Shown here one piece after another: positions 1-51,403 of a DNA stretch of 57,004 nucleotides (position 1 is its first letter; each line of letters begins with the position of its first letter). Position numbers and translations under genes: made by a program. Under the pieces are notes generated by a model, which saw only the letters and a program-made list of their open reading frames with translations, was not told the origin of the DNA and made no database searches. The DNA lies in contig JAZSHT010000002.1 in the NCBI GenBank assembly GCA_045533435.1, positions 1 through 57,004 of the forward strand, in the 5' to 3' direction. This DNA comes from Eubacteriales bacterium (lineage in GTDB: Bacteria; Bacillota; Clostridia; Oscillospirales; CAG-272).

Positions 1-275
1 TGCCTGAGGATGTGCGCAAGTTTTACGAGCTTACTAAGGAATATAAAAACATCCGTGTAAGAGGTCTTATGACAATGGCTCCCCGTTGTAATTCACGAGA
101 GGAATATCTAAAATACTTCTCTCTTACCAAGGAGCTTTTTGATGAGCTTTTTAAAAACGATGAAAACGCCATTCTCTCAATGGGAATGAGTGAAAGCTAT
201 AAATACGCCATTGAAGCGGGAGCTACTATGGTGAGGCTTGGCTCTTGCATTTTCGGAGAGCGAAAATACAATTAG
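1..275 (+). CDS. YggS/YlmE-family PLP-binding protein, C-terminal part (5' end outside window)
   Basis: Frame is open from the window edge. C-terminal LSMGMSESYKYAIEAGATMVRLGSCIFG is typical of YggS. Followed by sepF-yggT as in the Firmicute dcw-cluster tail. Confidence 0.8.
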   Translation, partial: PEDVRKFYELTKEYKNIRVRGLMTMAPRCNSREEYLKYFSLTKELFDELFKNDENAILSMGMSESYKYAIEAGATMVRLGSCIFGERKYN

Positions 276-308
276 TGATCAGTGGTCAGTGGTCAGTGAT
301 CAGTAAGT
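274..308. repeat. Heptamer tandem array (AGTGRTC)x5, forward type, starting inside the yggS stop codon TAG
   Basis: Read directly: agtgatc agtggtc agtggtc agtgatc agtaagt. Confidence 0.9.
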
Positions 309-383
309 TACTTTACGAACAGAAATAACAAACAAAATTAATACGCAACCTTAAATACACAAAAGGTTTGTAGCTATGTCAAT

Positions 384-423
384 CAGCTAATCGCTGACCA
401 CTGACCACTAGCCACTAACCACT
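384..423. repeat. Heptamer tandem array, reverse type (CCACTRA/GCTRA), imperfect inverted partner of 274-308
   Basis: Read directly: cagctaa tcgctga ccactga ccactag ccactaa ccact. Ends about 20 nt before the sepF RBS. Confidence 0.9.
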
Positions 424-2616: not shown

Positions 2617-4782
2617 ATGCAAAATCACGAAGATAAGCTTGTTTGGTGTCCTCTTTTTTCTATTACAGAGGATGAAAAAACCGCTTTTTTAGATAAAATC
2701 AAGGACGGAAAAATCGGCAACGGAAATCTTTCATCCTTCATTTTTGACACTATGTATAAGCAAGGCTACGATTACGCTGACAAGGATACATTAGAAGCCA
2801 CAAGGCGCGCTATTTTAAATTGGTTGATTTTTAAAACCGACTTTGCTCTTGATACCCTTAGTACGAAAAATTACGAAAATGCAAGGGAATGCTATAATAA
2901 TTGTCAGTATGATAGCGACATACTTGACACCTTAATTAAATATTTCACTCTTGCATGGGGTAGCCTTATGGACAAAAATGGAAAGCCATTATTTTTTGAT
3001 GGAAAGCGCATTTTTGAAATTATAAAAGGCGATGTTGATAATGAGCTTAAAAAAATCAAAAATCAATATGCACAGGATAAATATGCACATTTAAAAGCGG
3101 TTATTGACACAGTATGCACCGTTAATTATGAGTGCTACCTAAACAGTGAAAACGACAAAACAGAGCTTGAAAATGACTTAAATAGATATATTATCGACAC
3201 ATATAGCTACGATTTTATAAAAGCCACTATTCAAACCGAATATACATGCTCCGAATATTTTAAAAATAAGGTAAACGAAAAATTACAGCTATCATTATTA
3301 AATGATTTAGAATTTTGGCAGGATAAGGAATTCTCTGTTACCTCGTTTTTAAATCATATTTGCAAAAATAGCATAGAAAATGCAAAAAGCATAATTGACT
3401 ATATCTTTCAAAATTTACAAAAGGACAGCGATACTGCGCTTCTTATTAAAAACGGTCTTTCAATAGGCTTTTCACTTGAAATTTTAAAGAAAAAAGCAAA
3501 GGAATATGCTATTTTTAATAGCTTAAATGAAAAAATATGCTATCCGCTTTTTGACTGTGAAAATGAAATTATAAATAAGGGCAAGGAAATTTTTGAGGGA
3601 TTTTTCTTTGATTTTCTATATCCTCATTGCAAGGAAAAGATAAAGGACCATCTTTCACAAATAACAAATAACGCGGAGCTTGATGATGTTTTAGGCGCAA
3701 TAAATGATGCTACCATTGGAAATTACTTGGTTGGATTAGAAAGAAAAGCGCTATATATTTTAAAAAATGAGTATTTTTCACATGATTTTATCTTAAAAAG
3801 AGCATATATAAAGTCCTACTATCTTAAAAAATTATCCACACAGGGTAAGGAAAATAGCTCTTTATTAGAATGCTTTTATAATGTTACAAGAATTCTTAAC
3901 CGTGAGCTTAATATTTATACATCTATTCAGCTTGATAGTAAATTAAGAGAGGAAAAATTTAATTTACTTAAAGATATTCTATCTAAAATTGATGTAAGCA
4001 TTGATTATAGCGCCGACTATATTGCATCAATAATTGATATAAAATCCGCTACTGATGATGAAGCCAGCCGCTTTCCTATCTTACAGGATTTAGGCTCTAA
4101 AATATACGATTTTGCACTTGCAGAGCTATTTTTCTATAACCCTTACTACTCTATGGTTGAATATGAGTTTGACAAATATTCAGACTATAAATCTAAAATT
4201 GAAATTGCTAAATTTTTCAACCTAAACGAAGACTACATTTGCCATGCATTAAAGCCAATTAAGTTCTATTATGACACATTAAACGGCGTAATAGACATAA
4301 CAAAGCTTAACGATTTAGGCAGAAAAGAAAAGTATTTAGCTGACACACTTGATATGATTTTAGGTGCATACTGTCTTGACAAGGGACATAATGAAGCTAT
4401 AATCCTTGCAAAAACGCTAATTATCCACACATTTTCCGATGAATTTACAAATAACGATAATTTGTTATGCTTAGGCGAAAGCAGAAAGGAATACATAAAA
4501 TCGCACCTTGAGATTTTAAATTTAATGGACAATAAATATGACTATTTTAATATTATGCATAGGTCCTTATATAATCTCCTTGGTAGCTTAGTTTTTAATA
4601 TTAGCGTGGATAATGAAAAATCACTTGCACTCTACTCCCCCGACCGTATTGCTCCCCTCTTTGGCGACACTCGTTTTTTTACCGAAATCACTCCCCCATT
4701 TAAATGCTACCTTGAAAACGGTATCGATGGAGTAATAAGTGAGTATGGCAAAATCGCATTAAAAAAATACAATAGCAAATAA
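2617..4782 (+). CDS. Orphan 721-aa protein with a degenerate RNase III-like segment near the C-terminus
   Basis: Strong RBS aaaggagg and a long uninterrupted ORF. PILQDLGSKIYDFALAELFF and, about 78 aa later, LADTLDMILGAYCLDKG resemble the two RNase III signature blocks, but acidic residues are substituted. Confidence 0.55.
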   Translation: MQNHEDKLVWCPLFSITEDEKTAFLDKIKDGKIGNGNLSSFIFDTMYKQGYDYADKDTLEATRRAILNWLIFKTDFALDTLSTKNYENARECYNNCQYDSDILDTLIKYFTLAWGSLMDKNGKPLFFDGKRIFEIIKGDVDNELKKIKNQYAQDKYAHLKAVIDTVCTVNYECYLNSENDKTELENDLNRYIIDTYSYDFIKATIQTEYTCSEYFKNKVNEKLQLSLLNDLEFWQDKEFSVTSFLNHICKNSIENAKSIIDYIFQNLQKDSDTALLIKNGLSIGFSLEILKKKAKEYAIFNSLNEKICYPLFDCENEIINKGKEIFEGFFFDFLYPHCKEKIKDHLSQITNNAELDDVLGAINDATIGNYLVGLERKALYILKNEYFSHDFILKRAYIKSYYLKKLSTQGKENSSLLECFYNVTRILNRELNIYTSIQLDSKLREEKFNLLKDILSKIDVSIDYSADYIASIIDIKSATDDEASRFPILQDLGSKIYDFALAELFFYNPYYSMVEYEFDKYSDYKSKIEIAKFFNLNEDYICHALKPIKFYYDTLNGVIDITKLNDLGRKEKYLADTLDMILGAYCLDKGHNEAIILAKTLIIHTFSDEFTNNDNLLCLGESRKEYIKSHLEILNLMDNKYDYFNIMHRSLYNLLGSLVFNISVDNEKSLALYSPDRIAPLFGDTRFFTEITPPFKCYLENGIDGVISEYGKIALKKYNSK

Positions 4783-4815: not shown

Positions 4816-5985
4816 CTATTTGTTATTTTTTGTTTTAATTAGTACAAGCTCATGCATAATGAAAATGAGTAACAAGAAAATAAATAGGTAAACAGGTAAA
4901 AGTGAGATTGAAATTTTTTCTGCTATAACTCCAAAAAGCGGTGGCATTGCTAAAATACCAATATATGCAAATGCTATTTGCACGCCTATCATTGCTTGAG
5001 ATTTATCTGCACCAAAAACATTAGGTGTCATATGAATAATACATGGATAAATAGGCGAACAGCCAAGACCTATAATAATAAATCCAATTAAAGCAAATAT
5101 AAAATTATATGGTATGAAAAGTAAGATAATACCGATAGATATACCTAATGAGCCTATACGGATAAGCGTTTTATCGCTTAGCTTCATAGCAAGGAAGCCG
5201 TTTACTAGTCTGCCAAGAGTTACGCCTATATAGAACATGCTTGCATACCCTGCCGCCACCTCAGGCGCAAAGCTCCATTTTTCCACAAGATATGTGCTTG
5301 CCCAAAGAGATGCGCTTACCTCTAATGCACAATAGCAAAAGAACATTAAAAAGCATGGGAGCGCGCCTTTTATTGCAAATATTTCCTTAAAGGATAAGGC
5401 TTTTGATTTTTCTTGCTTATCTATGTCATTTTCCTTGCTTCCCTTTTTCCAAATTGGTACACTAATAAATATGATAAAGGAAAGCACAATTTGAATAATG
5501 GAAACAATAAGATAGCCACCACTCCAATTTTCAAGATTTACAAGTGCGAAGCTCATTATATAAGGACTAATAGATGCACCAACGCCCCACATACAATGAA
5601 GCCAGCTCATATGCTGCGCCTTAAAATTTAAAGCCACATAGTTATTTAAAATAGCATCAACGCCACCTGCACCAAGTCCAAAGGGTATTGCCCACAAAAT
5701 TAGCATCCAAAAATGTGTACTAATGGAAAAACCGAATAAACAAATAGCAGTTGTAGTAACGCTTACGGCAGTTACTAAGCCTGCACCGAATTTATGTAAA
5801 AGCTTATCACTAAATAAGCTTGAAAGTATTGTGCCAGCTGTGATAGTCATTGATATAATACCTGCATAGGATACAGGCACGCCAATTTCATTATGCATAA
5901 CAGGCCAAGCAGAGCCTAAAAGTGAGTCAGGCAAACCAAGACTAATAAAGCATATGTATATAAGCACTAAAAGCAAAATTCCCAT
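4816..5985 (-). CDS. MFS transporter
   Basis: 389 aa with about 12 hydrophobic segments, typical of the MFS family. Confidence 0.75.
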   Translation of the reverse strand: MGILLLVLIYICFISLGLPDSLLGSAWPVMHNEIGVPVSYAGIISMTITAGTILSSLFSDKLLHKFGAGLVTAVSVTTTAICLFGFSISTHFWMLILWAIPFGLGAGGVDAILNNYVALNFKAQHMSWLHCMWGVGASISPYIMSFALVNLENWSGGYLIVSIIQIVLSFIIFISVPIWKKGSKENDIDKQEKSKALSFKEIFAIKGALPCFLMFFCYCALEVSASLWASTYLVEKWSFAPEVAAGYASMFYIGVTLGRLVNGFLAMKLSDKTLIRIGSLGISIGIILLFIPYNFIFALIGFIIIGLGCSPIYPCIIHMTPNVFGADKSQAMIGVQIAFAYIGILAMPPLFGVIAEKISISLLPVYLFIFLLLIFIMHELVLIKTKNNK

Positions 5986-6087: not shown

Positions 6088-6675
6088 TTAGTCGTTTGTT
6101 TTTAAGTATGGAAGATATCCCTTTAAGTAGTTAATGCCTGAGCCTACTGTCATAAATGACATTAAAATTATAAGCACAAATGATGCTACATAGTTAAATT
6201 TACCAAGGTCCATTGTACCTGATACAATTAAAGCATTTTCAATTAAAACTACTAAGATACACGCCATTTGAGTTACTGTTTTTGATTTGCCAAAGAAGTT
6301 AGCAGCTAAATTAACCTCGCTTTTAGCACATGCTAAACGAATTGAGGTTACCCCAAGCTCACGAATAAATACAATAACGCATGCCCAAATCATAATACCA
6401 TCAAGTGCTTCAACATTAGCTGCAAGCACTAAAAATGCTGAGAAAACAAGCGCCTTATCTGCAAGTGGGTCCATAACCTTACCAAAGTTAGTTACAAGGT
6501 TATATTTTCTTGCAATTTTTCCGTCAAGCATATCAGTAAGTGAAGCAACTGCAAAAGCTACTGCCGCTACAATACCGGCAATTAACGGATTTTCAATATA
6601 CATATAGCAACCAACGAAAACAGGAATTAAAATCATTCTTAAAATCGTTAATTGATTTGGAATATTCATTTTCAT
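6088..6675 (-). CDS. pgsA: CDP-diacylglycerol--glycerol-3-phosphate 3-phosphatidyltransferase
   Basis: IPNQLTILRMILIPVF and the CDP-alcohol phosphatidyltransferase motif DMLDGKIARKYNLVTNFGKVMDPLADK. Confidence 0.9.
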   Translation of the reverse strand: MKMNIPNQLTILRMILIPVFVGCYMYIENPLIAGIVAAVAFAVASLTDMLDGKIARKYNLVTNFGKVMDPLADKALVFSAFLVLAANVEALDGIMIWACVIVFIRELGVTSIRLACAKSEVNLAANFFGKSKTVTQMACILVVLIENALIVSGTMDLGKFNYVASFVLIILMSFMTVGSGINYLKGYLPYLKTND

Positions 6676-8657: not shown

Positions 8658-9758
8658 TTAATCTAAGTTTAAATCATCAATGTTGAAATCGGTGGTATCA
8701 ATGTCGTCGTCCTCGCCGCCAACTGATGAACCGCTTGCTATTTTGTCCTTAATTTTATTTTCCAATTCCTTCATTAAATCAGGATTTGATTCAAAATACT
8801 TTCTTGTATTATCCTTACCCTGAGCAATTCTTGTTCCGTTATATGAGAACCATGAGCCACTCTTTTCAATTATTTCAAGCTCTACTGCAAGCTCCATAAT
8901 TTCTGAGGATTTAGAAATACCTGTGCCGTATAAAATATCAAATTCTGCTGTTCTAAACGGTGGCGCAACCTTATTTTTAACAACCTTGCATTTTACATGG
9001 TTACCATAGGATTCTGTGCCATTTTTTAATACCTCGCTCTTACGAATATCAATTCTTACAGAAGCATAGTATTTAAGGGCGTTACCGCCTGTTGTTGTTT
9101 CTGGATTACCGTACATTACGCCAATCTTTGAACGAAGCTGGTTAATGAAAATTACTATACAGTTTGATGCTGAAATACAGCCTGAGAGCTTTCTTAAAGC
9201 CTGAGACATAAGTCTTGCTTGAACGCCCATGTGGCTATCGCCCATGCTGCCCTCAATTTCCTGCTTAGGTACAAGAGCTGCAACTGAGTCAATTACTACA
9301 ATATCAACTGCCCCTGAGTTTACTAATTTTTCTGTAATTTCAAGAGCTTGCTCTCCGTTATCAGGCTGAGAAATTACTAAATCATCTGTATTAACGCCGA
9401 TCGCCTTTGCATATACAGGGTCAAGAGCATGCTCTGCATCAATAAATGCTGCAATTCCGCCTTCCTTTTGTACCTCTGCAATAGCGTGTAATGCTACCGT
9501 TGTTTTACCTGATGATTCAGGACCATAAATTTCTATAATTCTGCCCTTTGGAAGTCCGCCAACACCAAGAGCTAAATCAAGCGTTAATGAGCCTGTTGAA
9601 ACAGCGCTGATTTGTAAATCTGGGCTATCTCCTAAACGGCGAATAGACTCCTGACCGAAATCCTTTCTAATCTGACCTAATGCAGTTTCAAGGGCTTTCT
9701 TTTTATCATCAGAGCTGGCTATAACAACCTTTTCCTTTTTTTCTGCTTTTTTTGCCAT
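8658..9758 (-). CDS. recA: Recombinase RecA
   Basis: Walker [10 protein letters not shown] and canonical RecA core motifs throughout, with an acidic C-terminal tail. Confidence 0.97.
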
Positions 9759-9786: not shown

Positions 9787-9817
9787 AGCCGTCAGCTGTT
9801 AGCCGTTAGCCGTCAGC
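9787..9817. repeat. Heptamer array (AGCCGTC AGCTGTT AGCCGTT AGCCGTC AGC) lying in the recA 5' leader
   Basis: Read directly. On the recA sense strand it reads GCTGACG GCTAACG GCTAACA GCTGACG just upstream of the RBS. Confidence 0.9.
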
Positions 9818-9912: not shown

Positions 9913-10003
9913 CGCTGACTGCTATCTACTGACAGCTTATCGCTGTGAACAAAGCGAACCTCAAATTTCGCTAACCGCTAACTGCTAGCGGCTGACTGCT
10001 TAA
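9913..10003. repeat. Two heptamer arrays (9913-9947 and 9969-10003), each preceded by TCAAATTTCGCT
   Basis: Read directly: cgctgac tgctatc tactgac agcttat cgctgtg, and cgctaac cgctaac tgctagc ggctgac tgcttaa. Confidence 0.9.
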
Positions 10004-10024: not shown

Positions 10025-10585
10025 TTAATATGTGGCACTATCAATTCTCCAACCGTTTTCCTCGTTTATAAGTGTTATCTCAACGAAGTCATTTTTTTCA
10101 AGGTTGGTTGTTTTAATTCTTGCAATTATAAAGCGCTTTGAATTTTTAATAATTTCTGTCGTGGAAAAATCGTACTTTGATACCTCTATGCCCTCAATAT
10201 CCTTTCTTACAGATAAATGTCCTTCATACTCAATATATCTTGCATATACAGCAGTTGAGCCAACTGCTCCAGACTCGCCCTCAAATGCAGTTTTGATTAT
10301 ATCAGATGCATAATCAGAGCTGAAAATTTCTCTTGTTCTTTCCACAAGCGGTAGCTTTGCAGTATAGCTTTCACTACCCTTTACAGGCACATAAAGTCCC
10401 TCATCATCCACAAGCTGTCTCTCTAAGCCCTCTCCAAAATAAATAACATTTAATTGGTAGGACTCCTTAACTAAAGTATTAAAAATTGCTTTTGCTTCAG
10501 TATCGCTTACGCTTTTACATCCCATTATACTAACTGCAAAAATTACAATTAGTATAAGGGACATGATTTTTACAAATAATTTCAT
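10025..10585 (-). CDS. Putative lipoprotein
   Basis: Signal peptide with lipobox-like IMGC. I prefer the ATG at 10585 (4 nt after the gyrA stop) over the GTG at 10600. Confidence 0.55.
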   Translation of the reverse strand: MKLFVKIMSLILIVIFAVSIMGCKSVSDTEAKAIFNTLVKESYQLNVIYFGEGLERQLVDDEGLYVPVKGSESYTAKLPLVERTREIFSSDYASDIIKTAFEGESGAVGSTAVYARYIEYEGHLSVRKDIEGIEVSKYDFSTTEIIKNSKRFIIARIKTTNLEKNDFVEITLINEENGWRIDSATY

Positions 10586-15941: not shown

Positions 15942-16175
15942 TTAAAACCCTTCAACAATTCTTGAATATTTGTACGCACTTAAATAAACTGTCTTATCCT
16001 TCATTATGATAAAAGTTCTCGGTAAATCAAAGCCAAGTGTTTTTACTCTGCCTTCCTTTTGTGCATTTGACAGATACTTTTTTGTAACTGAGGACACAGT
16101 TGAGCTATCCATATCAAAAATAGCCAATATATCCTTTTTTCTCACTACCTTGTTTTCGCCTATATGTAGGTACAT
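15942..16175 (-). CDS. DUF370/RemB(YaaB)-like protein
   Basis: MYLHIGENKVVRKKDILAIFDMD matches the YaaB/RemB N-terminus. Conserved position between recF and gyrB. Confidence 0.75.
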   Translation of the reverse strand: MYLHIGENKVVRKKDILAIFDMDSSTVSSVTKKYLSNAQKEGRVKTLGFDLPRTFIIMKDKTVYLSAYKYSRIVEGF

Positions 16176-16178
16176 TTT

Positions 16179-16209
16179 AGTGGTTAGTGGTTAGTGATTA
16201 GTGGTTAGT
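16179..16209. repeat. Heptamer array (AGTGGTT AGTGGTT AGTGATT AGTGGTT AGT), 3 nt from the remB-like start codon
   Basis: Read directly. It occupies the place where a Shine-Dalgarno sequence would be expected. Confidence 0.9.
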
Positions 16210-16234: not shown

Positions 16235-17428
16235 CTACTCCTCTATATTTTCATTTATTTTGGTTTCTTTTTGGTTATCGATTTCTTTTTGCGATACTTT
16301 TTCTTTCTCTAAAGAAAAAGTATCATTATCAACATGTCCGTCCTTGATGTAGATAAAGTTCACATCATCAACCTCGTTAAAGGCTGTGCTTTCGCAGGTG
16401 GTTATAATAACCTGTCTTTTTTTAATGTTTGACATTATATATTTACGCCTATTTTCATCAAGCTCGCTTAATACATCATCAAGTAGAAATACGGGATACT
16501 CTCCTGTAAAATCCTTGCTTATTTCGCCCTCACTTAATTTCATTGCAAGAGCAAGGCTTCTTTGCTGACCTTGTGAGGAATAAAAGCGGGCATCCTTACC
16601 GTTTAATTCAATTTTTAAGTCATCCTTATGAATACCATAAAGAGTTGCGCCGTATTTTATTTCTCTTTCAATATTATTTTTAAGTAAATCCGTATATTTT
16701 TTCTTTAAGGACTCACGGGAATCAAAGTCGTTTTCATCCGCATTTGTCTCATATGATATGCTTGGTATTTCTCTACCCTCAGTCATTTCATTAAAATATC
16801 GTTTAACGTAGAAATCAAGCTTTTTTACATACTCAATACGCATATTTGCAATATCTGTACTAAGAGTGGCTAACTCCTCAGAATAAACCTCTAAAATGCC
16901 ATCATACGCTTTTCTTTCCTCATCGCTCATTTTTAAAATTGCATTTCTGTTTTCTAAAACCGCATTATACTTTGCAAGCATTCTTATATAAAGTGGCTTT
17001 AGCTGTGAAATTGCAATATCTAAAAACTTACGCCTAACCGACGGGGACTCCTTAATAATCCCAAGATGCGACGGACAAAATAGCACGGAACGAAACTCGC
17101 CAATTATTTCAGATGTCTTACCTACCTTGTTTTTGTTGCGGTAAAACTTCTTATTTGCGTTTTTAGGAATTTCAACACCTAATTCACATTCTCCCCTTTG
17201 GGACTCAAATATCATTCTTGCATAGCCCACATTTGAATTAAAATTAATTAATTCTCTGTCCTTAAACGCCCTAAAGCTCTTTCCTCTTGCAAAAAGGTAA
17301 ATTCCCTCTAAAATATTTGTCTTTCCCTGAGCATTCTCGCCGTATATTACATTTATTCCGTCTTTAAATTCTATCTTTTCACTCTCAATATTTCTAAAGA
17401 AAGTAAATTCTATCTCTTTACATTTCAT
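16235..17428 (-). CDS. recF: DNA replication/repair protein RecF
   Basis: Walker A GENAQGKTN and the SMC-like signature SQGQQRSLALAMKL. The ATG at 17428 (MKCKEIEF) is preferred over the upstream TTG that lies in a repeat. Confidence 0.9.
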   Translation of the reverse strand: MKCKEIEFTFFRNIESEKIEFKDGINVIYGENAQGKTNILEGIYLFARGKSFRAFKDRELINFNSNVGYARMIFESQRGECELGVEIPKNANKKFYRNKNKVGKTSEIIGEFRSVLFCPSHLGIIKESPSVRRKFLDIAISQLKPLYIRMLAKYNAVLENRNAILKMSDEERKAYDGILEVYSEELATLSTDIANMRIEYVKKLDFYVKRYFNEMTEGREIPSISYETNADENDFDSRESLKKKYTDLLKNNIEREIKYGATLYGIHKDDLKIELNGKDARFYSSQGQQRSLALAMKLSEGEISKDFTGEYPVFLLDDVLSELDENRRKYIMSNIKKRQVIITTCESTAFNEVDDVNFIYIKDGHVDNDTFSLEKEKVSQKEIDNQKETKINENIEE

Positions 17429-17429
17429 A

Positions 17430-17620
17430 CTTTTTCTTTGCAAAAAGAAAAAGTACGCAAAAAGAAATGATAAAAAATATATTTATACAATACTTTTTCT
17501 TTTCTTATCTAATTATTCTAAAATATCCATCTAACCAAATAAAACCAATAGCTTTGTTTTTATACCTTTTGGTTTCTTTTTTGCTTATCTTTTTTCTTTT
17601 TCAAAAGAAAAAAGTAAGAA
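17430..17620. repeat. Two hairpin-tail repeat copies (17430-17475 and 17571-17620). The second shows both inverted tails.
   Basis: ctttttctttgcaaaaagaaaaagtacgcaaaaagaaatga, and ggtttcttttttgcttat-cttttttctttttcaaaagaaaaaag-taagaa. Confidence 0.85.
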
Positions 17621-17621
17621 T

Positions 17622-17653
17622 AGCTGACCACTGACCACTAGCCACTGACCACT
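17622..17653. repeat. Heptamer array (GACCACT GACCACT AGCCACT GACCACT) just 3' of the dnaN stop
   Basis: Read directly. It is the inverted counterpart of the 16179-16209 array, so the pair brackets recF. Confidence 0.9.
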
Positions 17654-17672
17654 AAATGAATAACTAACCGTG

Positions 17673-18821
17673 TTAGTTATTCATTTTGATAGGCATTACA
17701 AAATACATATACTTTTCGCCATCAATAATTTCAGGCTCAATAAGTACGCCGGTAAGCTGATTTTTAAATGACATCTTTGTTTTAACATCATCACAAACTC
17801 TAAATACATCAAGTAAGAACTTACAGTTAAATCCAATTATAAGGTCATCGCCATATTCCTTATTTATTGAAATTTCATCATATACATTTCCGTTTGCTGA
17901 TGTTGTTGAAACTGATAGACATTCATCAATAGTGAACTTAACATATGAACGAATACTACCTGCTAAGCGGTCCTCAACGATAAGTGAGGATCTTTCAAGA
18001 GCTGAGCGAAGCTCCCCTGCATTTAATTCAATGCTCATGCTATGTGATGTAGGTAAAATTCTGTTGTAGTCAATATAATCTGAGTCAATAGTTTTTGTAA
18101 AGAATACAAATACGCCTATCTTAAAGATAATATATCTTCTTGAAAGCATTCTAATTTCAATCTCATCCTCTGTATCCTTAACCATCTTTAAAAGCTCTAA
18201 AAGTGTCTTGCCTGGGATAATAAACTTAAGATTAACCTCAGAGCCATCTCTATTCTTATTTACAATATCAGCTTCCTTTTCACAGTATGCAAGTCTGTTA
18301 CCATCGCAGGATACGATTGTAATCTTATTACCCTTAATTTGGAAGTACGCGCCGTTAAATACAGGTCTTGCATCGTTTTGACCGATAGCAAATAAAATTC
18401 TGTTTACAAACTTTCTAAATAAGTGCTGTGGAATTGAAAATCCTCTTTCGCCTGTAAGCTCAGGTAATGTTGGAAAGTCATTACCAGGAAGTGCCTTAAT
18501 ATCAAAATGAGACATTCCGCTTTCAATTATTGTCTTATAAGAGCTGTCAACTGAAATTTTGATTGCTCCATCAGGCATAGCCTTGATAATTTGAAGTAGC
18601 TTTTGAGCGTTGATAATGCATACGCCCTCTTCCTCTACCTCACAGTTAATGTATGTTCTCATTCCCTTTTCAAGGTCATAGGATTGAATCATGCATCTGT
18701 TATCACTTGTGCATGTTAAATGTACGCCCTCTATTGATGGCATTGTGTTCTTTCCTGATACCGTGTACATAGCAGGAATAAGTGCTGATAATAATACGCT
18801 CTTTTCAAAAATAGCAATCAT
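17673..18821 (-). CDS. dnaN: DNA polymerase III beta sliding clamp
   Basis: 382 aa, three-domain clamp-like sequence, RBS aggag, dnaA-dnaN synteny. Confidence 0.92.
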   Translation of the reverse strand: MIAIFEKSVLLSALIPAMYTVSGKNTMPSIEGVHLTCTSDNRCMIQSYDLEKGMRTYINCEVEEEGVCIINAQKLLQIIKAMPDGAIKISVDSSYKTIIESGMSHFDIKALPGNDFPTLPELTGERGFSIPQHLFRKFVNRILFAIGQNDARPVFNGAYFQIKGNKITIVSCDGNRLAYCEKEADIVNKNRDGSEVNLKFIIPGKTLLELLKMVKDTEDEIEIRMLSRRYIIFKIGVFVFFTKTIDSDYIDYNRILPTSHSMSIELNAGELRSALERSSLIVEDRLAGSIRSYVKFTIDECLSVSTTSANGNVYDEISINKEYGDDLIIGFNCKFLLDVFRVCDDVKTKMSFKNQLTGVLIEPEIIDGEKYMYFVMPIKMNN

Positions 18822-18839
18822 TTTGTTTTCTCCTAATTT

Positions 18840-19325
18840 TTATGTATGTTAAATTTTTAAAAAACTAAATTGTTTTTCCACTCTATATTTGATAAACAAA
18901 ATTAAAAATTCAAAAATATAAATTAAATATCATTCAAAAAGCACCGCTTTTTCTTATTAATTCTTTTTAATTAAATTTATTTAATTATAGTAGTAGAAGT
19001 AGTAGTGGGTGTTGATACCGTTGATAACTTTTTAAAGCCTTATAAATCAAAGCTCCGTGGCGATTTTTTATCAACCTAATAGTGTTGACTTCTGTTGATA
19101 AGCTTATTCAGTTATCAAAAAATTTCCACGAAAATCTCCACATCCATTTTTTATCTCTTTTCCACAAACAACCAACTGTTGACTCACTTTTTTCTTAACG
19201 CGAAGAAAAAAGTAAGCAAAAAAGAATCGAAACTGAATAAGAAATCCTTGTCCTATCTGTATCCTTTATTTAACTAAAGTGTACTAATTTTTTCCACATC
19301 TTCCATGTTGAAATATGTTGATAAC
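18840..19325. promoter_or_regulatory. oriC segment in the dnaA-dnaN spacer: AT-rich tract, six DnaA-trios, GC cluster, tandem and scattered DnaA boxes
   Basis: TAG TAG TAG AAG TAG TAG at 18988-19005, tgggtg, then TGTTGATAC and CGTTGATAA at 19010-19027. Further boxes TTATCAACC, TGTTGATAA, TTATCAAAA, TTTTCCACA (x2) and TGTTGATAA extend up to 19323. Confidence 0.8.
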
Positions 19326-19521
19326 TCCGCTTTTCTTAGCGCGAAGAAAAGCTTGGCAAAAGAATCGAAAAGAATTAAAAATATAATAAAACTTTTATTT
19401 TAAATTTTTCTTAACGCGAAGAAAAAAGTAAGAACCTCGACCCACAAAACGAAGTAAACCTCGTGTGGGTGCCCGAGAACCTTGATACTCGTTTACTCGT
19501 ATTAAGCAAAAAAGAATCGAC
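19187..19521. repeat. Three hairpin-tail repeat copies inside the oriC spacer (19187-19232, 19329-19371, 19406-19521, the last with a nested insert)
   Basis: cttttttcttaacgcgaagaaaaaagtaagcaaaaaagaatcgaaa and variants. The insert is cgaCCCACAaaacgaagtaaacctcgTGTGGGtgcccgag. Confidence 0.85.
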
Positions 19522-19557
19522 AAATAACAAAACTTTTATTGAATAAATCATTTATGT

Positions 19558-19585
19558 AGCCGCTGACCACTGACCACTAGCCACT
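19558..19585. repeat. Heptamer array (AGCCGCT GACCACT GACCACT AGCCACT) just 3' of the dnaA stop
   Basis: Read directly. Followed by the palindrome cggataacttgttatccg, which overlaps the dnaA stop. Confidence 0.9.
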
Positions 19586-19597
19586 ACGGATAACTTG

Positions 19598-20986
19598 TTA
19601 TCCGTTAATTTCCCTTATAATCTCCTTAACCATCAAGTTAAAGTCATTATCCTTGTCCATTTTTTCCTTAATGAACTTTTCGCTGGAAACTAGCGTTGTT
19701 CTATCGCGGTTAATTGCATTACCGATTTGGACCTTACTTAGCTTTGTAGTTTTTAATGCTATGTAAACTATTAAATGTCTTGGCTCAACAATTTCCTTAG
19801 TTCTCTTTGTTGATAAAATATCCTCTCTTGATACTCCATACTTCTTTGAAATAGTAAGAATGATTTCATCCATCTTTTTCGTATCTGATGGCTCAGCTTG
19901 AATATATTCTCCAAGTGATGAGGCAACCTTATCAAGTGTAATATCAACGCCCTCTAAAAGCTGAATTGCGCTAAGCTTTTTAATAGCGCCATCAAGCTGT
20001 CTAATTGAGGACTTAATATTTTCTGCAATAAATCTTAAAATTGATGATGGAATATCAAGATTATACTGCTGTACCTTTTGCTTTAAGATAGCAAAGCGAA
20101 GGTCAAATTCTGGTAACTGAATATCAGCAATAAGACCTGACATAAATCTTGTTCTTAATCTATCCTCAAGCGTTTGAATTTCCTGTGGTGGGCGGTCAGA
20201 TGTTAAAATAATCTGCTTTTTAGCCTCATAGATAGCATTAAATGTATTAAATAGCTCCTCTTGCACAGAAATTCTTCCTGCCGCAAATTGAATGTCATCA
20301 ATAAGAAGCACATCAACGCTTCTATACTTATCTCTAAACTGCGCTGTTGTTTTCTTTCCAATAGCATCAACTAATTGATTAGTAAATTCCTCACTGCTTA
20401 TAAGCACAATTTTCTTATCAGGGTATCTATCTAAAATTCTATTTGTAATAGCGTAAAGCAAGTGAGTTTTACCAATTCCGCTTGGACCATAAATAAATAG
20501 CGGATTATACAAATTAGTTGTATCTAGCTTTGAAAAGTCCTTTTCAGCAACTGCCTTAGCTGCTGCGCATGCTAAATCGTTTGATTTACCAACAACGAAG
20601 TTTTCAAATGTATATTGTCTGTTTTCACTTTTATTTTCATTTCTTTGTGGAGCTACGCTTGTGTTATTATCACTTGAATCCTTTATTTCAGGCTCTCTAT
20701 GCTTAATTGATAAATCAATTTCGCCATGCTCCTTAGAGTGAATAATAACCTTTGGAGAATAACCGACAATTTCTGCAAGACATTCGCTTAAATCATCGGA
20801 AAATTTATCCTCAATAATATCCTTTTTCATATCAGTTGAAGCAACAAAAATCGCCTCATCCTTAGTAAGCGCAGTTAATTTTAGCTCAACAAACCAAAGC
20901 TTAACAACAACGCTTGAATGTCTTTTTGAAAGCGCCTCTATTAAGAAAGAATGTATCTCTTGAAGCTCCTGCTCTTTAAAATTCAT
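19598..20986 (-). CDS. dnaA: Chromosomal replication initiator DnaA
   Basis: AAA+ Walker A GPSGIGKTHL, box VII and a domain IV HTH (KRTKEIVEPRHLIVYI). RBS aggag. Confidence 0.97.
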   Translation of the reverse strand: MNFKEQELQEIHSFLIEALSKRHSSVVVKLWFVELKLTALTKDEAIFVASTDMKKDIIEDKFSDDLSECLAEIVGYSPKVIIHSKEHGEIDLSIKHREPEIKDSSDNNTSVAPQRNENKSENRQYTFENFVVGKSNDLACAAAKAVAEKDFSKLDTTNLYNPLFIYGPSGIGKTHLLYAITNRILDRYPDKKIVLISSEEFTNQLVDAIGKKTTAQFRDKYRSVDVLLIDDIQFAAGRISVQEELFNTFNAIYEAKKQIILTSDRPPQEIQTLEDRLRTRFMSGLIADIQLPEFDLRFAILKQKVQQYNLDIPSSILRFIAENIKSSIRQLDGAIKKLSAIQLLEGVDITLDKVASSLGEYIQAEPSDTKKMDEIILTISKKYGVSREDILSTKRTKEIVEPRHLIVYIALKTTKLSKVQIGNAINRDRTTLVSSEKFIKEKMDKDNDFNLMVKEIIREING

Positions 20987-21110
20987 GATTTTCTCCTAAT
21001 TAAAGTATAAATAGTACCTAAGTATAATTATACTATTATATTGTATTTACTATAATTATAATATATATAGCTAGAAAAGTCAAGAAAAATCGCGTTTTTT
21101 TCTACTATTA

Positions 21111-21397
21111 TTATATACTTTTCCACCGACAGTGTGGAAAAGTATATAATTCACTTATTTAAAAGTGAATTATTTTCCACAAGATGAGTGGAAAAGTATA
21201 TAATTCTAAGCGTAGCGAAAGAATTAATTTCCACCGACAGTGTGGAAAAGTATATAATTGACTCCCTAAAAGAGTCAATTATTTCCACATTTTTTGTGGA
21301 AAAGTATATAATTACGAACGCAGAGAAGTAATTTTTTTCAACGATTTTTGTTGAAAAGTATATAATTAACTTATTAAAAATTTAAATAATTTCCACT
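21111..21397. promoter_or_regulatory. oriC upstream DnaA-box cluster: five 54-bp tandem units, each with an inverted box pair TTCCAC-N7/8-GTGGAA + AAGTATATAATT + a variable palindrome
   Basis: GTGGAAAAG/GTTGAAAAG starts at 21134, 21188, 21242, 21296 and 21350, an exact 54-bp spacing. TGTGGAAAA equals the DnaA box TTATCCACA with one mismatch. Confidence 0.85.
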
Positions 21398-21550
21398 TTT
21401 TAATTAAAAAATAGAGTATTTTAAAGTATTTTAAGCGGTTAGAGAAAATAAAAATTTACAAAAATGTAATAAATAAATACTTAAAATAATTAAAATTTAA
21501 TTTTCAGGTTATAAAATAAAATAAAAAAGCAAAAATAATATAAAAAGTAG

Positions 21551-21579
21551 TTGACAATTTCAAAAAAGTGTGATATTAT
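21551..21579 (+). promoter_or_regulatory. Sigma-A promoter: TTGACA, 17-bp spacer, TGa-TATTAT
   Basis: Perfect -35, 17-nt spacer and an extended -10, read directly. Confidence 0.75.
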
Positions 21580-21586
21580 ATCTGTG

Positions 21587-21776
21587 CTTGAAAAGTAAAT
21601 AGCATGTTGTTGTGTAATAGATAGGGGTATCTTTACTTCGCAAAGTGCCTAATCAAAATTCCTTGTGAGCGAGCTCCCAGATGATTTTGATTGGCATACG
21701 CAGCGGATTCGCAAATAAATTTGCGAGCCGTTTCGATACAAGCCCTGCATATTAACGCAACGGAGTGCATTAATAT
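21587..21776 (+). ncRNA. Structured leader or unknown ncRNA of about 190 nt upstream of tRNA-Ser
   Basis: Three hairpins at 21647-21695, 21704-21730 and 21732-21790. The last pairs a leader copy of the tRNA 3' acceptor strand (CCCTGC) with the tRNA 5' acceptor/D region. No family recognised. Confidence 0.35.
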
Positions 21777-21864
21777 GCAGGGGTATCGAAGCGGTCATAA
21801 CGAGGCGGTCTTGAAAACCGTTTGGCCAAAAGCCACGAGGGTTCGAATCCCTCCCCCTGCGCCA
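21777..21864 (+). tRNA. tRNA-Ser (anticodon UGA), CCA encoded
   Basis: Acceptor GCAGGGG/CCCCTGC, anticodon loop cTTGAaa, long variable arm tggccaaaagcca, T-arm gagggTTCGAATccctc, discriminator G and CCA. Confidence 0.9.
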
Positions 21865-38234: not shown

Positions 38235-40043
38235 TCAATAGCAATGGTTTTCAACAAGACATTTCAACTCATCTTTTATCGATATTCTCTGTGTAAACAA
38301 ATACGTATATGCCTTACCTATTGCACCATAAAACAAATGACATTTGGGACATTTAGACTTATCTTTACCAAATGATAAAATATGTGAATTGGCTATATCT
38401 GTATATGGATCAATATAGTATATATGTTTAATACCTAATTGGTAAGCTTTTTTGGAACACAAAACACACGAGCTTGCCGAAGTAAATAAGTTTCCTCCTA
38501 ATATGCCTTCTCCACCATATTTTACTATTTGTAAAAATGCATTTTCTTCAGCGTGCAGAGAACGAGTGTGAACTTGATTTTTTTGTTTTGTCAGTTCACC
38601 GTACTCATCTTTAAAACAGTATGCACACAAACGACCATCTAAGCTTTTTTCCACATCTTCCTTTGCATCTGATATTTTTTTATATTTTTTCTTCATATGT
38701 TTACAAAAATCCAAGTCTTCTATTTCAAAAGTACTAAAGGTATCTTCATCTTTGTTTAAAAGATAATTGTTAACAGATCGCAAATTGCACGGAACTTGTC
38801 CCTCCGCAACACTATTCCAACCAATTGCTTTCACGCTATAATATTTATCTGTAATAACTGCACCCACCTGTCTTGACAAACACCCTGAATTTAATTTTGC
38901 ATTATATGCTATCTGCATACATCTTTCCACATTCGTGGGAGTTACTAATCCTGGATGCTTTATTAGCGTTACATATTTGACAACTTGTTCAGTTATAAAA
39001 TACTTTTCTGTATTTGCTTTTGGATTGTATAAATATATATCTGCCAATTGTGCACAAGCCTCAATATTTTGATTTGTGAACATTTCATGCTGCTCTTTGA
39101 CTTTTCCTGGATATTCTGTATCATCAATCGCTCTTATCTGTTGATTATCATAATTTTCTGCCAATCTTCTTTTTCTTTCTTCATTATCAGTGCTTACTGC
39201 GACAAGAAAAAATGAAGCGTATCTATCTTGAAAATATGTTGCTTCATAAGGATTCCTAATAGCATCCACACATATAAATGTGGGTTGGTTTTTTGTCTTT
39301 TGCACATATCTAATTGCTTTAATAAATCCGTTAGCCCTCTTGGCTATTTCAAACATATGTTTTCCTGTAAAATCTTTGCTTTCTGAAATATCTCCGTGAT
39401 GTCTTATTCTATTTCCTATAGTTTGCAAACAATATGTATACGCATTCACTTTACCACTTTTTTGTGCTAAATTAATAGAGATATTTTGCATCACCTCTCT
39501 AAATTTCATTTGAACACTTGACAATTTAAATAATAATTCGTACTCCATGTTCAATTTATTAAAATCGTATCTATCTAAATTGCCTTTTTCATCAATGCAA
39601 TCTATAATCTTTTGATTTAAGTAATCAAATTCTTCTTTAACAGATGTATTTTTTTCTAAAAGTTTCCGTTGTATTTTTTCAACCACCTCTTTATCAAAGA
39701 TTTTTTCCAACTCAGACATAAATTCATCATAAGTTTTTTGTGCTATAAATGAGAAAATAACATCCGTCATACTGATTCTAAAAAATGAATTCCAGTGTTT
39801 TTTAGCATAGTTATATATAATTTGATACTTTCTCTCTTCTGCATTTTGAAACCCTGTCGACTTAGGCTCATGCAAATTTAAATCTGCAAATTTTTCTTTT
39901 GATAATATGTTAGAAATCGTAGAACACCCTGAACCGGTTCTTCCGGTTAAACCTATGATTACAAATTGTTCTCTTTCTCCATAAATAGTCTTTATTGCTT
40001 GCTCGCATCCTAAAATTTCTTCAACTTGATTTGTCTCACTCAT
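38235..40043 (-). CDS. AvcD/DcdV-like defence protein: N-terminal P-loop kinase-like domain plus C-terminal dCMP/dCTP deaminase domain
   Basis: Walker-A-like GLTGRTGSGCST. Zinc deaminase motifs SLHAEENAF and SSCVLCSKKAY...IYYIDPY. Size and architecture match known dCTP-deaminase antiphage proteins. Confidence 0.7.
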   Translation of the reverse strand: MSETNQVEEILGCEQAIKTIYGEREQFVIIGLTGRTGSGCSTISNILSKEKFADLNLHEPKSTGFQNAEERKYQIIYNYAKKHWNSFFRISMTDVIFSFIAQKTYDEFMSELEKIFDKEVVEKIQRKLLEKNTSVKEEFDYLNQKIIDCIDEKGNLDRYDFNKLNMEYELLFKLSSVQMKFREVMQNISINLAQKSGKVNAYTYCLQTIGNRIRHHGDISESKDFTGKHMFEIAKRANGFIKAIRYVQKTKNQPTFICVDAIRNPYEATYFQDRYASFFLVAVSTDNEERKRRLAENYDNQQIRAIDDTEYPGKVKEQHEMFTNQNIEACAQLADIYLYNPKANTEKYFITEQVVKYVTLIKHPGLVTPTNVERCMQIAYNAKLNSGCLSRQVGAVITDKYYSVKAIGWNSVAEGQVPCNLRSVNNYLLNKDEDTFSTFEIEDLDFCKHMKKKYKKISDAKEDVEKSLDGRLCAYCFKDEYGELTKQKNQVHTRSLHAEENAFLQIVKYGGEGILGGNLFTSASSCVLCSKKAYQLGIKHIYYIDPYTDIANSHILSFGKDKSKCPKCHLFYGAIGKAYTYLFTQRISIKDELKCLVENHCY

Positions 40044-47695: not shown

Positions 47696-47854
47696 ATGAA
47701 AAAATATGTATGCGATGTATGCGGGTGGGAATACGATGAGGAGCTTGGCGCACCAGAATATGGTATTGCCCCAGGCACAAAATTTGAGGACCTTCCTGAT
47801 GATTTTGAATGCCCACTTTGTGGTGTTGGTAAGGACAGCTTTAGCGAACAGTAA
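47696..47854 (+). CDS. Rubredoxin (52 aa)
   Basis: [16 protein letters not shown]...[13 protein letters not shown] carries two CxxCG knuckles. RBS aaaggag. Not in the supplied track. Confidence 0.85.
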
Positions 47855-47856
47855 TT

Positions 47857-47895
47857 AGTGGTTAGTGGCTAGTGGTCAGTGGTCAGCAGTTAGCT
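47857..47895. repeat. Heptamer array (AGTGGTT AGTGGCT AGTGGTC AGTGGTC AGCAGTT AGCT), 3 nt after the rubredoxin stop
   Basis: Read directly. Mixes the GTGG and GCNG unit subtypes in one array. Confidence 0.9.
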
Positions 47896-47935: not shown

Positions 47936-47968
47936 AAAAAACCTCTTGACTAAAATCAAGAGGTTTTT
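47936..47968. terminator. Hairpin aaaaacctcttgaCtaaaatcaagaggttttt
   Basis: Stem of about 10 bp with flanking A-run and T-run. A near-identical copy lies at 48231-48263. Confidence 0.75.
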
Positions 47969-47969: not shown

Positions 47970-48215
47970 TTATTTAATTAGCTCATCACAGCTAACGCCA
48001 AAAATTTCTGCTAGTCTAAGGAGTTCAATATCGGTTACAAATCTTTCGCCTTTTTCAATTCTTTGTATTGCATTTTTATCTACATCTATACCTGCAAGCT
48101 GAAGCTTTTCTGCTAAAATTCTTTGGGACATTTTTGGATTTTGCGCTTTTCTTAATTGATAAATTTTTGCGCCACAAAGATTATTTTTTCCGTTTGCCGA
48201 TTTATTTTTAAACAT
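47970..48215 (-). CDS. XRE-family HTH protein (81 aa)
   Basis: HTH MSQRILAEKLQLAGIDVDKNAIQRIEKGERFVTDIEL. Confidence 0.75.
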   Translation of the reverse strand: MFKNKSANGKNNLCGAKIYQLRKAQNPKMSQRILAEKLQLAGIDVDKNAIQRIEKGERFVTDIELLRLAEIFGVSCDELIK

Positions 48216-48230: not shown

Positions 48231-48263
48231 AAAAACCTCTTGAATAAAATCAAGAGGTTTTTT
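48231..48263. terminator. Hairpin aaaaacctcttgaAtaaaatcaagaggtttttt (twin of 47936-47968)
   Basis: Differs from its twin by one loop base. Lies directly 5' of the HTH gene RBS. Confidence 0.7.
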
Positions 48264-48289: not shown

Positions 48290-48317
48290 CGCTGACCGCT
48301 AACTGCTAACAGCTGCG
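48290..48317. repeat. Heptamer array, reverse type (CGCTGAC CGCTAAC TGCTAAC AGCTGCG)
   Basis: Read directly. Inverted partner of 47857-47895. Confidence 0.9.
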
Positions 48318-48361: not shown

Positions 48362-48451
48362 CGATTTCTTTTTTGCTTAGCTTTTTTCTTTGACATGAGG
48401 GGTCCTCAAACCGAAAAATGAGGTTTGGGGTTCACGAGAGAAAAAAGTTAG
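48362..48451. repeat. Hairpin-tail repeat copy with a nested insert, abutting the cyclophilin stop codon
   Basis: cgatttcttttttgcttag-cttttttcttt-[gacatgaggggtcctCAAACCgaaaaatgaGGTTTGgggttcacgag]-agaaaaaag. Confidence 0.85.
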
Positions 48452-50448: not shown

Positions 50449-50549
50449 TACTAATTCTCCATTTCTTATTTTTTATTTTTATATTAAAGCCTTTCGGCTG
50501 TGGTGGGCGAAAATCATCTATGATTATTTACGGCAAAAATTTTAAGCAT

Positions 50550-51093: not shown

Positions 51094-51128
51094 AGCTGTT
51101 AGACGCTAGCCGTCAGCGGTTAGCAAGT
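51094..51128. repeat. Heptamer array (AGCTGTT AGACGCT AGCCGTC AGCGGTT AGCAAGT)
   Basis: Read directly, immediately after the 51064-51093 hairpin. Confidence 0.85.
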
Positions 51129-51347
51129 TAGATTATACGATTAATTATAAAATTTTATAGACAATAACTATATTTATATGTTATACTTGATACATAGTTA
51201 AAAATAACGTTATATGTCGCATCAAGATTTTTAAATTTAATGCTTACCAAGGTTTTTCTGTGAGCAAAGCAACCCTTATACCTCATTACAGTCACTATAA
51301 GTGATGATTGTATACACACATTTGGTGTGATTGCAACAGAGTTGCAA

Positions 51348-51378: not shown

Positions 51379-51403
51379 TTAAAGCGACTGAAAGGAGCGA
51401 AAC

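Follow-up and report, generated by a model that had tools for sequence, protein, structure and literature searches.

Stop- and start-proximal heptanucleotide repeat arrays with a fixed polarity in intergenic DNA of uncultured gut Clostridia

Heptanucleotide repeats have been known in cyanobacteria since 1990, and the units of STRR1-3 are CCCCAGT, TTGGTCA and CAACAGT. Here we describe short arrays of tandem 7-nt units that lie between the genes of a 57,004-nt stretch of DNA from a Eubacteriales bacterium (GenBank assembly GCA_045533435.1, contig JAZSHT010000002.1, positions 1 to 57,004; hereafter the window). The window is a Firmicute replication-origin region of 33.5% G+C, the nearest public genomes are metagenome-assembled genomes of uncultured gut Clostridia/Eubacteriales, and its DnaN is 99% identical to that of JBGVPY010000087. 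Forward, G-rich units were defined as AGYNGTY (AG-NN-GTY) and reverse, C-rich units as RACNRCT (RAC-NN-CT), the latter scanned as CT[AG][AG][CT]NN. The arrays show what characterizes STRR and other long simple-sequence repeats: a tandem 7-nt unit, dispersal over intergenic sites, and turnover of the unit between close strains. On balance, we favor the explanation that they are lineage-specific, STRR-like heptad simple-sequence repeats with a polarity set by what is tolerated at mRNA boundaries. They are the first heptad-repeat case that we could find in Clostridia, with a unit family of their own within a known repeat class; full-text literature searches returned no paper on heptad repeats in Clostridia and none with tandem AGTGGTC/GACCACT strings.

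The window units (AGTGGTC, AGCNGTY, AGGGGAT) are not those of STRR1-3, the nearest approach being TGGTCAG, one base from STRR2. STRR repeats belong to heterocystous cyanobacteria, whereas the window host is an uncultured gut member of the Clostridia with 33.5% G+C and loops of 70-150 nt between its paired arrays. The resemblance lies in the organization: tandem 7-nt units in few copies, many dispersed intergenic loci, several families per genome and inverted hairpins (PMC2670836, PMC4692102). STRR hairpins are said to be common in cyanobacteria, for instance between the co-transcribed genes hupS and hupL, where they have been proposed to raise transcript stability (PMC2670836). More generally, heptamers are an over-represented class of long simple-sequence repeat in many bacteria, for which polymerase slippage has been proposed (PMC4692102). 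The statement in the first-pass annotation of this DNA that no described repeat family has such an organization was therefore mistaken, as the heptad class is published (PMC2670836, PMC4679880, PMC4692102).

Two further described systems resemble the window arrays in part. The GGGAATC repeats of Xanthomonas are about 90% intergenic, lie about 28 nt from the upstream open reading frame (ORF) and far nearer to it than to the downstream ORF, form 70-75 convergent inverted pairs per genome, are found on no plasmid, and differ in length and sequence between close species (Rehm 2015, PMC4692102). Like the window arrays, the Xanthomonas and Nostoc heptamers (GGGAATC, GGGGA(C/T)T) have inward-pointing G-rich strands, and their absence from plasmids parallels the absence of the window arrays from a mobile island. 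They are, however, G-tract repeats studied for quadruplex formation, whereas the main window families have no G3-4 tracts; two arrays look quadruplex-like by sequence alone, the one at 51348-51379 (which is (GGGGATA)n on the minus strand) and an AGGGGTC array at 6538-6575 of the relative locus L052.

The TAACTGA heptamers of marine Beggiatoaceae, some Cyanobacteria and Bacteroidetes occur mostly in a stop-containing orientation a few nucleotides from a start codon, often without a canonical ribosome-binding site (MacGregor 2015, PMC4679880). Strain indels come in 7-nt steps, the BOGUAY repeats are nearly all direct with one inverted set only, and one Flexibacter set is reversed and stands immediately past a stop (PMC4679880). 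Read as CTGATAA, this unit fits the reverse pattern of the window and contains stops in all three frames; the reverse arrays of the window likewise point at starts, 0-34 nt away, and the one before remB likewise comes without a ribosome-binding site. In the window, by contrast, inverted pairs are common, several sub-families take the place of one dominant unit, and most reverse arrays are followed by a normal Shine-Dalgarno (SD) sequence. The window holds no TAACTGA array, and our scan pattern shares only the CTGAY core with the published unit.

The arrays are limited to the non-coding DNA of the resident chromosome. A self-match scan of the window found 13 period-7 arrays, compared with 0-1 in shuffled sequences, and the other periods from 4 to 12 remained at background level, which bears out the arrays reported in the first-pass annotation as real. 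TRF recovered the same arrays, at 3.5-6 units each; a regular-expression scan added the array at 51096-51123, and one more forward array, the second of the recA spacer (9913-9937), was recognized by reading the sequence. The full list for the window is 14 intergenic arrays, where shuffling would lead one to expect about 0.6. The census covered the window and the loci of its close relatives (designated by L numbers), and in this set none of 37 arrays lay within an ORF of at least 70 amino acids on either strand. Among spacers of at least 50 nt in the window, 9 of 17 core spacers held an array and none of the 14 mobile-island spacers did (Fisher p = 0.0013), in keeping with the earlier statement that the arrays belong to core DNA. 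Within the unit, positions A1, G2, G5 and T6 are conserved and positions 3-4 are freely variable. Three sub-families are present in the window (AGTGGTC, AGCNGTY and AGGGGTY/AGGGGAT); as first noted, the unit sequence varies between loci while period and polarity are kept.

Database comparison yielded little. The only Rfam family to pass its gathering score anywhere in the window was tRNA, so the suggested Rfam check gave no family for the arrays at that score; in E-value mode, the yggS-sepF spacer, taken as the archetype, returned only plant miRNA hairpin models far below threshold, and the recA spacer returned nothing. BLAST of pure and natural arrays against plasmid and phage collections gave no match, for which low-complexity masking is the probable reason. 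Two candidate relationships were dropped. Likeness of the units to the 3' end of 16S rRNA (GAUCAC, GCGGCUG) is of the kind expected by chance, because about 20 variants in two orientations against a 50-nt target give several 6-mer matches. A ribosome-binding-site motif, GACTGAAAGGAG, was rejected as part of the element, since only two genes of the WYL region have it and its count is at chance level.

Placement of the arrays follows a single polarity rule that is independent of gene direction: on either strand, spacers read 5'-G-rich arm...C-rich arm-3'. The rule holds at 13 of 13 independent sites in the window and close relatives (binomial p = 2.4e-4). Forward arrays begin -7 to 26 nt past the stop codons of yggS, the lipoprotein gene, dnaN, dnaA, the rubredoxin gene and WYL1, with two looser placements, one 135 nt past the stop of the peptidyl-prolyl isomerase (PPIase) gene and one directly past a terminator-like hairpin (51064-51093). 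The reverse arrays of sepF, recA, remB and WYL2 (the gene at 52751) stop 0-34 nt short of the ATG, and in relatives so do those of queA and the dihydrodipicolinate synthase (DHDPS) gene. Further sites in relatives lie past the stops of remB, queA and the DHDPS gene. In L053, the DHDPS and queA genes diverge, and reverse-type arrays precede both starts. The third unit family obeys the polarity as well, both in L052 (AGGGGTC...CCCCTAT) and upstream of WYL1 in the window (CCCTATC). One rule thus covers arrays on the stop side and on the start side, whether the spacer is co-directional, convergent or divergent, and the 7-nt period, the stop- and start-proximal placement and the orientation rule that were first noted for the window extend to its relatives.

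The two arms differ in what they would present to a ribosome. The C-rich arm contains no ATG, GTG or TTG and no SD-like run of G, and a stop codon (TGA, TAA or TAG) occurs in 94% of its units, so that all three frames are closed within three units. In the G-rich arm all frames are open, and GTG and GG motifs are present. We propose that selection on the transcript at gene boundaries would have caused the polarity: the C-rich arm would be harmless before a start because it has no start codons, no G runs and no open frame, and the G-rich arm would be tolerated only behind a stop because its frames are open and it carries GTG and GG motifs. A two-arm fold would also bring a stop and the next start together, so that an insertion of such a shape would disturb coupling least. 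The C-rich arm may even be usable as a whole leader. The remB reverse array comes without an SD sequence in four lineages (the window, L004, L005 and L030), and strains without the array have AGGA in that position; before sepF, recA and WYL2, a GGAG is kept behind the reverse array. Three-frame stops as the driver of reverse arrays were considered and are unsupported, as the non-stop CTGG combination is not depleted (8 observed vs. 11 expected).

We assessed the stability of the arrays among relatives. The AGYNGTY family was detected only in five relatives whose full-length DnaN is at least 93% identical to that of the window and in the partial locus L030 (94% over a 52-residue DnaN fragment). 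Within 10 kb on either side of dnaN in more distant relatives, one had ATTTTGC arrays and the others had none. The strain comparison shows that the arrays turn over within a few percent of sequence divergence. The site directly past the dnaA stop is occupied by the AGTGGTC type in the window and L003, the AGCNGTY type in L002, AGGATGT in L004 and nothing in L005. Heptads at equivalent sites in relatives include AGGATGT (L004), ATTTTGC (L009) and AGGGGTC/CCCCTAT (L052). The lipoprotein-recA spacer has at least four versions among strains with 100% identical RecA; in L037-L039 both of its arms have switched to the AGTGGTC type, and in L034 the forward arm is lost. At the yggS-sepF spacer, at least five allelic forms occur in strains that share 96% or 85% SepF identity with the window. 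One form has no heptad array at all (L047, L048, L052, L055, L056 and L058) and carries a different repeat of 20-21 nt instead. As an observation on this form, the type C spacer of L047, L052 and L056 consists of TAGCGAAAT motifs and a 20-21-nt tandem unit (AATTTAGCTYGC..TTTACGC) in one, two or three copies depending on the strain.

Because strains with near-identical SepF have array-less spacers, the arrays are dispensable for expression of the flanking genes. The first-pass annotation had raised processing and insulation as possible roles; a required role of this kind is contradicted by the heptad-less yggS-sepF spacers of strains with SepF 96% or 85% identical. The same comparison bears on a different account of the arrays, according to which a protein or the ribosome would bind them as single-stranded RNA in steps of 7 nt, with a HutP-like hexamer on forward arrays and S1/Csp-type, SD-less initiation on reverse arrays. 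The conserved A1, G2, G5 and T6 with free positions 3-4, the remB ATG adjoined in four lineages by a reverse array without an SD sequence, and a polarity tied to gene boundaries would all suit such a binder, and HutP provides a precedent in that it binds XAG motifs exactly 7 nt apart, three per face, on single-stranded RNA (PMC2425495). The AG every 7 nt in (XAG-N4)3 and in the forward arrays is an analogy only: HutP sites are two groups of three motifs within the leader of a single operon, and the window host is not known to encode HutP. With AGTGGTC, AGGGGTC, AGGATGT and ATTTTGC at equivalent sites, a single sequence-specific binder is hard to accommodate, and sepF does without arrays; we regard this account as very unlikely.

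Several contigs in the comparison (L038, L039, L040 and L059) start or end inside a heptad array, and contigs with close SepF homologues are mostly shorter than 5 kb, which suggests that spacer polymorphism and repeats break metagenome assemblies of this clade. A metagenome scan with SepF gave one distant locus, and exact-sequence look-ups of the window YggT and RluD found neither. The more distant relative L009 has a GC-rich structured repeat of 85 nt (2370-2456, 4470-4556 and 9490-9576) directly before three of its four ATTTTGC arrays; a window motif at about 48400-48450, GGGGTCCTC...GGGGTTC, resembles it.

Sharing of sequence between loci indicates that arrays have been copied from spacer to spacer. 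The 31-mer CTGACCACTGACCACTAGCCACTAACCACTA is identical before sepF (394-424), after the rubredoxin gene in reverse complement (47856-47886) and before recA in L037, and a copy with one mismatch lies past dnaN (17624-17654). Modules made of an array and its adjacent 13-30-nt tail also recur at unrelated loci. It is these identities at unrelated places that point to copying. We propose that slippage favoring 7-nt units, together with ectopic gene conversion between spacers, would have generated the arrays; ectopic copying would homogenize and spread them, and selection would restrict them to non-coding DNA.

Copying of this kind might also be expected if the arrays were ends or remnants of a small mobile element, similar to a miniature inverted-repeat transposable element (MITE) or a REPIN, with heptads as terminal inverted repeats and lone arrays as solo ends. 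Such an origin would explain the fixed 5'-F...R-3' order of forward and reverse arms on both strands, the 31-mer at three unrelated sites, the array-tail modules common to different loci, the tendency of the two arms of one spacer to come from the same sub-family, and the presence of the same unit in a phage contig of very different G+C (described below). The record of insertion is missing from it: apart from the short tails beside arrays, inter-arm sequences are unrelated from locus to locus, and in strain comparisons whole spacers differ, while neither target-site duplications nor cleanly empty or filled sites are seen. On these two grounds, unrelated loops and a lack of clean insertion sites in strain comparisons, a classical MITE was rejected. 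REP/BIME and REPIN sequences are extragenic and transcribed, have hundreds of dispersed copies, often as inverted hairpin pairs past gene ends, and are not found in DNA of recent acquisition; a REP unit is one imperfect palindrome, has no 7-nt period and is tied to RAYT transposases. The window arms, in contrast, are direct repeats and not self-palindromic, no transposase or RAYT gene lies near the arrays or among the core genes of the window, and arrays are missing from the mobile island. We give the mobile-element origin little credence.

Spacers with both arms are predicted to form long imperfect stems, with loops of 70-150 nt in Clostridial spacers, as the first-pass annotation had envisaged. 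The predicted fold of the yggS-sepF spacer has -57.9 kcal/mol (z -6.75), and the z values of the recA and WYL spacers are -4.65 and -3.35. The strands are not equivalent, however. Among Clostridial alleles, the antisense strand was the better folder in 7 of 12 whole-spacer folds (margin >1.5 kcal/mol) and in 9 of 12 arm-only duplexes, although three of these nine differed by only 1.0-1.1 kcal/mol. Accordingly, A·C predominates among the mismatches of the mRNA, with G·U at the corresponding positions of the opposite strand, and the expectation that they would be GU-compatible in RNA was not borne out: it is the antisense that keeps wobble pairs in most alleles. The short recF-remB spacer is an exception (sense -24 vs. 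antisense -17.6 kcal/mol).

Partner arms showed no sign of having evolved together. Every heptad of the AGC-type pairs has a mismatch at the variable (N) position. Forward arms pair with the reverse arms of other loci as well as or better than with their own; the recA forward arm, for example, gives -58.1 kcal/mol with a sepF allele and -42.8 kcal/mol with its own partner. Covariation between partners, which had been proposed as a check in relatives, was rejected on this basis, own-partner duplexes being no better than cross-locus ones and pairing not being partner-specific. About half of the arrays have no partner in their spacer, namely those past dnaA, dnaN, remB, queA and the DHDPS gene and the one at 51096.

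These properties bear on whether the stems themselves are selected in transcripts that are polycistronic or arise by read-through, as RNase III-type sites, 3'-end stabilizers or long-range terminator/insulator hairpins ahead of the next ribosome-binding site. Transcripts that start in the loop would lack the 5' arm and escape, and adjacency of stop and start could support coupled translation. Stable predicted stems, T-runs past many reverse arms, the position of the stop at the 5' base of the stem and of the start at its 3' base, common to the window and the phage contig L103, and the stabilizing role proposed for the hupS-hupL STRR hairpins (PMC2670836) would be expected from such sites, as would arrays between nearly every gene of the L103 tail module. 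Partnerless arrays, the lack of own-partner preference and of compensatory changes, AGC-type stems mismatched in every heptad, heptad-less spacers serving the same genes and the absence of an Rfam family at threshold are not. Nor would selection for a stem in mRNA predict sense as the weaker folder, as found in 7 of 12 whole-spacer folds, 9 of 12 arm-only duplexes and, among the matches listed, 12 of 14 assignable viral pairs. We consider selected RNA stems rather unlikely. Under our preferred explanation, the hairpin may be a tolerated by-product which may modulate processing or stability and would not be a selected stem. The antisense asymmetry would fit selection that weakens the mRNA stem, and would equally fit a role for a hairpin on the template strand.

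We also scanned viral contigs in IMG/VR. The pattern (CTRRCNN)x4 was found in at least 120 stretches, compared with about 2-3 expected by chance, the expectation being a computed per-position probability multiplied by a rough estimate of IMG/VR size. A special preference for the CTRRC core cannot be claimed, as two control heptad patterns were likewise abundant. Among the matches listed, tight inverted pairs had the F...R order in 27 cases vs. 3, and the 5' arm was the G-rich one in 26 of 30 pairs of the CTRRC set and 30 of 40 pairs of the control sets (56 of 70 overall, p = 4e-7). Where a coding strand could be assigned to the listed pairs, the antisense was more stable in 12 cases vs. 2 (p = 0.013).

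One viral contig shares the Clostridial hairpins. At 61% G+C, L103 (IMGVR_UViG_3300047586_000106) codes for a siphovirus-like tail terminator and a tape-measure protein; its 286-aa protein had no relatives in the database (host query). AGTGGYC/GRCCACT hairpins stand at at least five consecutive gene junctions of its tail module (345-411, 841-941, 2913-3003, 5817-5899 and 6330-6445). In the layout of a junction, the first forward unit supplies a stop TAG; (AGTGGYC)n is separated from (GRCCACT)n by 13-46 nt, counted between scanned arrays, and an ATG comes 5-33 nt after the latter. At the first junction, the loop has 6 unpaired nt. At all five junctions the antisense fold is more stable, by 10-27 kcal/mol, with the coding strand assigned by script at three and the plus strand taken as sense from the ORF map at the other two. 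AGTGGTC/GACCACT junction hairpins are thus common to gut Clostridia and a 61% G+C phage contig. The intercistronic RNase III sites of phage T7 are imperfect, mismatched hairpins between the genes of a polycistronic transcript, a layout similar to that of the L103 tail module. T7 sites, however, are unique sequences with a conserved structure, whereas the heptad stems are interchangeable repeats without covariation.

Several observations weigh against heptad simple-sequence repeats that are merely tolerated at gene boundaries. The six unpaired arrays past stops are all of the forward type, which a constraint acting at starts only does not explain. The AGTGGYC/GRCCACT architecture at at least five consecutive junctions of a streamlined tail operon in L103 speaks for function over mere tolerance. 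The predicted stems are very stable, and on inspection about 9 of 15 alleles have a T-run of at least three behind the reverse arm, which would fit a terminator or insulator role; a terminator consensus scan does not flag these stems. Hypermutability of the arrays was not supported: between L032 and L033, divergence was 3.6% in arrays (4 of 112 positions), compared with 2.65% in the remaining intergenic DNA and 1.8% in coding DNA, which is no clear excess. As the arrays are not measurably hypermutable, slippage as their driver rests on the literature.

The individual arrays of the window are as follows. On the plus strand, the yggS-sepF spacer opens with the forward array (AGTGRTC)x4.4 at 269/274-304 (AGTGATC AGTGGTC AGTGGTC AGTGATC AGT), whose first unit gives the yggS stop TAG (273-275). 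It closes with the reverse array (CTRRCCA)x4-5 at 386/394-424 (CTAATCG CTGACCA CTGACCA CTAGCCA CTAACCA CTA), which holds the recurrent 31-mer at 394-424, ends 32 nt before the sepF ATG (456) and is followed by TTTTT and an SD sequence. The lipoprotein-recA spacer lies on the minus strand. It has an AGCNGTY-type forward array at 9969-9998, 26 nt past the lipoprotein gene stop (10025-10027), and a second, shorter forward array at 9913-9937 (AGCTGTC AGTAGAT AGCAGTC AGCG) within an 80-nt insertion missing from L002/L032. Its reverse array at 9787-9817 (GCTGACG GCTAACG GCTAACA GCTGACG GCT) is followed by TTTTTT and an SD sequence and lies about 29 nt before the recA ATG (9758).

Three more arrays are on the minus strand around dnaA and dnaN. 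The CTAACCA-type reverse array at 16177-16209 adjoins the remB ATG (16173-16175), with no SD sequence, and pairs with a G/U-rich stretch directly past the recF stop. The AGTGGTC-type forward array at 17624-17654 begins about 20 nt past the dnaN stop (17673-17675), and that at 19560-19586 stands 12-14 nt past the dnaA stop (19598-19600), just after a small hairpin; neither has a reverse partner in its spacer. The rubredoxin and PPIase genes converge on two forward arrays. One (47852-47894, plus strand) begins at the rubredoxin stop TAA (47852-47854) and holds the 31-mer of 394-424 in its reverse complement; its partner is an AGCNGTY-type array (48290-48314, minus strand) 135 nt past the PPIase stop (48448-48450). 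Between them, a helix-turn-helix (HTH) gene at 47970-48215 (minus strand) is bracketed by near-identical terminator-like hairpins at 47939-47966 and 48233-48260 (AAACCTCTTGA[C/A]TAAAATCAAGAGGTTT); gene and hairpins look like a cassette inserted into a former array pair.

The remaining arrays are on the plus strand in the WYL region. A forward array at 51096-51123 directly follows the terminator-like hairpin 51064-51093 and is itself followed by the shared tail AGTTAGATTATACGATTAATTATAAAAT. The C-rich array (CCCTATC)x4.6 at 51348-51379 represents the third unit family (reverse type RTCCCCT) and lies 25 nt before the WYL1 ATG (51404). Past the WYL1 stop TAG (52616-52618), a forward array begins after 5 nt (52624-52648, AGCAGAT AGCAGTT AGCGGTC AGCG), and a reverse array follows at 52696-52727 (GCTAACA GCTGACG GCTAACC GCTAACA GCTA), 23 nt before the ATG at 52751, assigned to WYL2 in the first-pass annotation. 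Upstream of WYL1, 955 nt (50449-51403) have no convincing gene. This segment holds a tRNA-like T-arm fragment (50866-50882, minus strand), the hairpin at 51064-51093, which is bidirectional, and the forward and CCCTATC arrays; it may be decayed DNA or an unrecognized RNA gene.

The minus strand of the window carries dnaA, dnaN, recF, remB, gyrB, gyrA and recA, and the plus strand yggS-sepF-yggT-lspA-rluD. The origin region around dnaA is in two parts (18822-19597, the 776-nt dnaA-dnaN spacer, and 20987-21776), with DnaA-box repeats at 21120-21396 in the form of 54/108-nt repeats with TTTTCCACA-type boxes; cumulative GC skew reaches its minimum near 21 kb. Next to tRNA-Ser (21777-21864) lies the variable island (about 21.9-44.6 kb), where the relative L003 has only about 5.5 kb. 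It encodes PcfK/MutS_I, PcfJ, an RHS-repeat protein of 2013 aa (30446-36487), a deaminase-domain protein (38235-40043), DUF4062 and an extracytoplasmic function (ECF) sigma factor.

A second dispersed repeat in the window is the palindrome TACTTTTTCTTTTT-N-CAAAGAAAAAGTA, found at 17428-17455, 56715-56742 and 56909-56936 on the minus strand and at 16295-16322 on the plus strand. At the recF start, the called TTG (17443) is inside the palindrome, and another copy lies about 35 nt upstream of the ATG (56679) of the GH28 gene. The dnaA-dnaN spacer has two copies of a related hairpin, TTACTTTTTTCTTCGCGTTAAGAAAAAAGT (19186-19215 and 19402-19431, both minus strand). By chance, no copies of the palindrome or of this hairpin would be expected. 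The spacer that separates the GH28 gene from the gene for the leucine-rich repeat (LRR) protein contains a twice-repeated 22-nt unit, AATGGACTATTTTACTGTTTAA (55371-55413).

For the published heptad repeats of cyanobacteria, Xanthomonas, Beggiatoaceae and Bacteroidetes, neither a function nor a mechanism of spread has been shown. The orientation-independent polarity, the exchange between loci and the stronger antisense hairpin make the Clostridial arrays worth genome-scale follow-up. The natural allelic series beside the same genes (type A, type B and no-heptad spacers), together with the phage operon hairpins, eases reporter and transcript-mapping tests. A bolder view is that heptad hairpins of the form (AG-NN-GTC)n...(GAC-NN-CT)n are a cross-phylum punctuation of gene junctions, with universal polarity, a hairpin favored on the template strand and self-copying between spacers. 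We think this distinctly unlikely, but if true it would point either to an unrecognized mechanism, mobile or based on gene conversion, that works on hairpins of single-stranded DNA, or to a conserved host factor with a 7-nt reading register, and it would offer a first handle on the function of STRR-type repeats.

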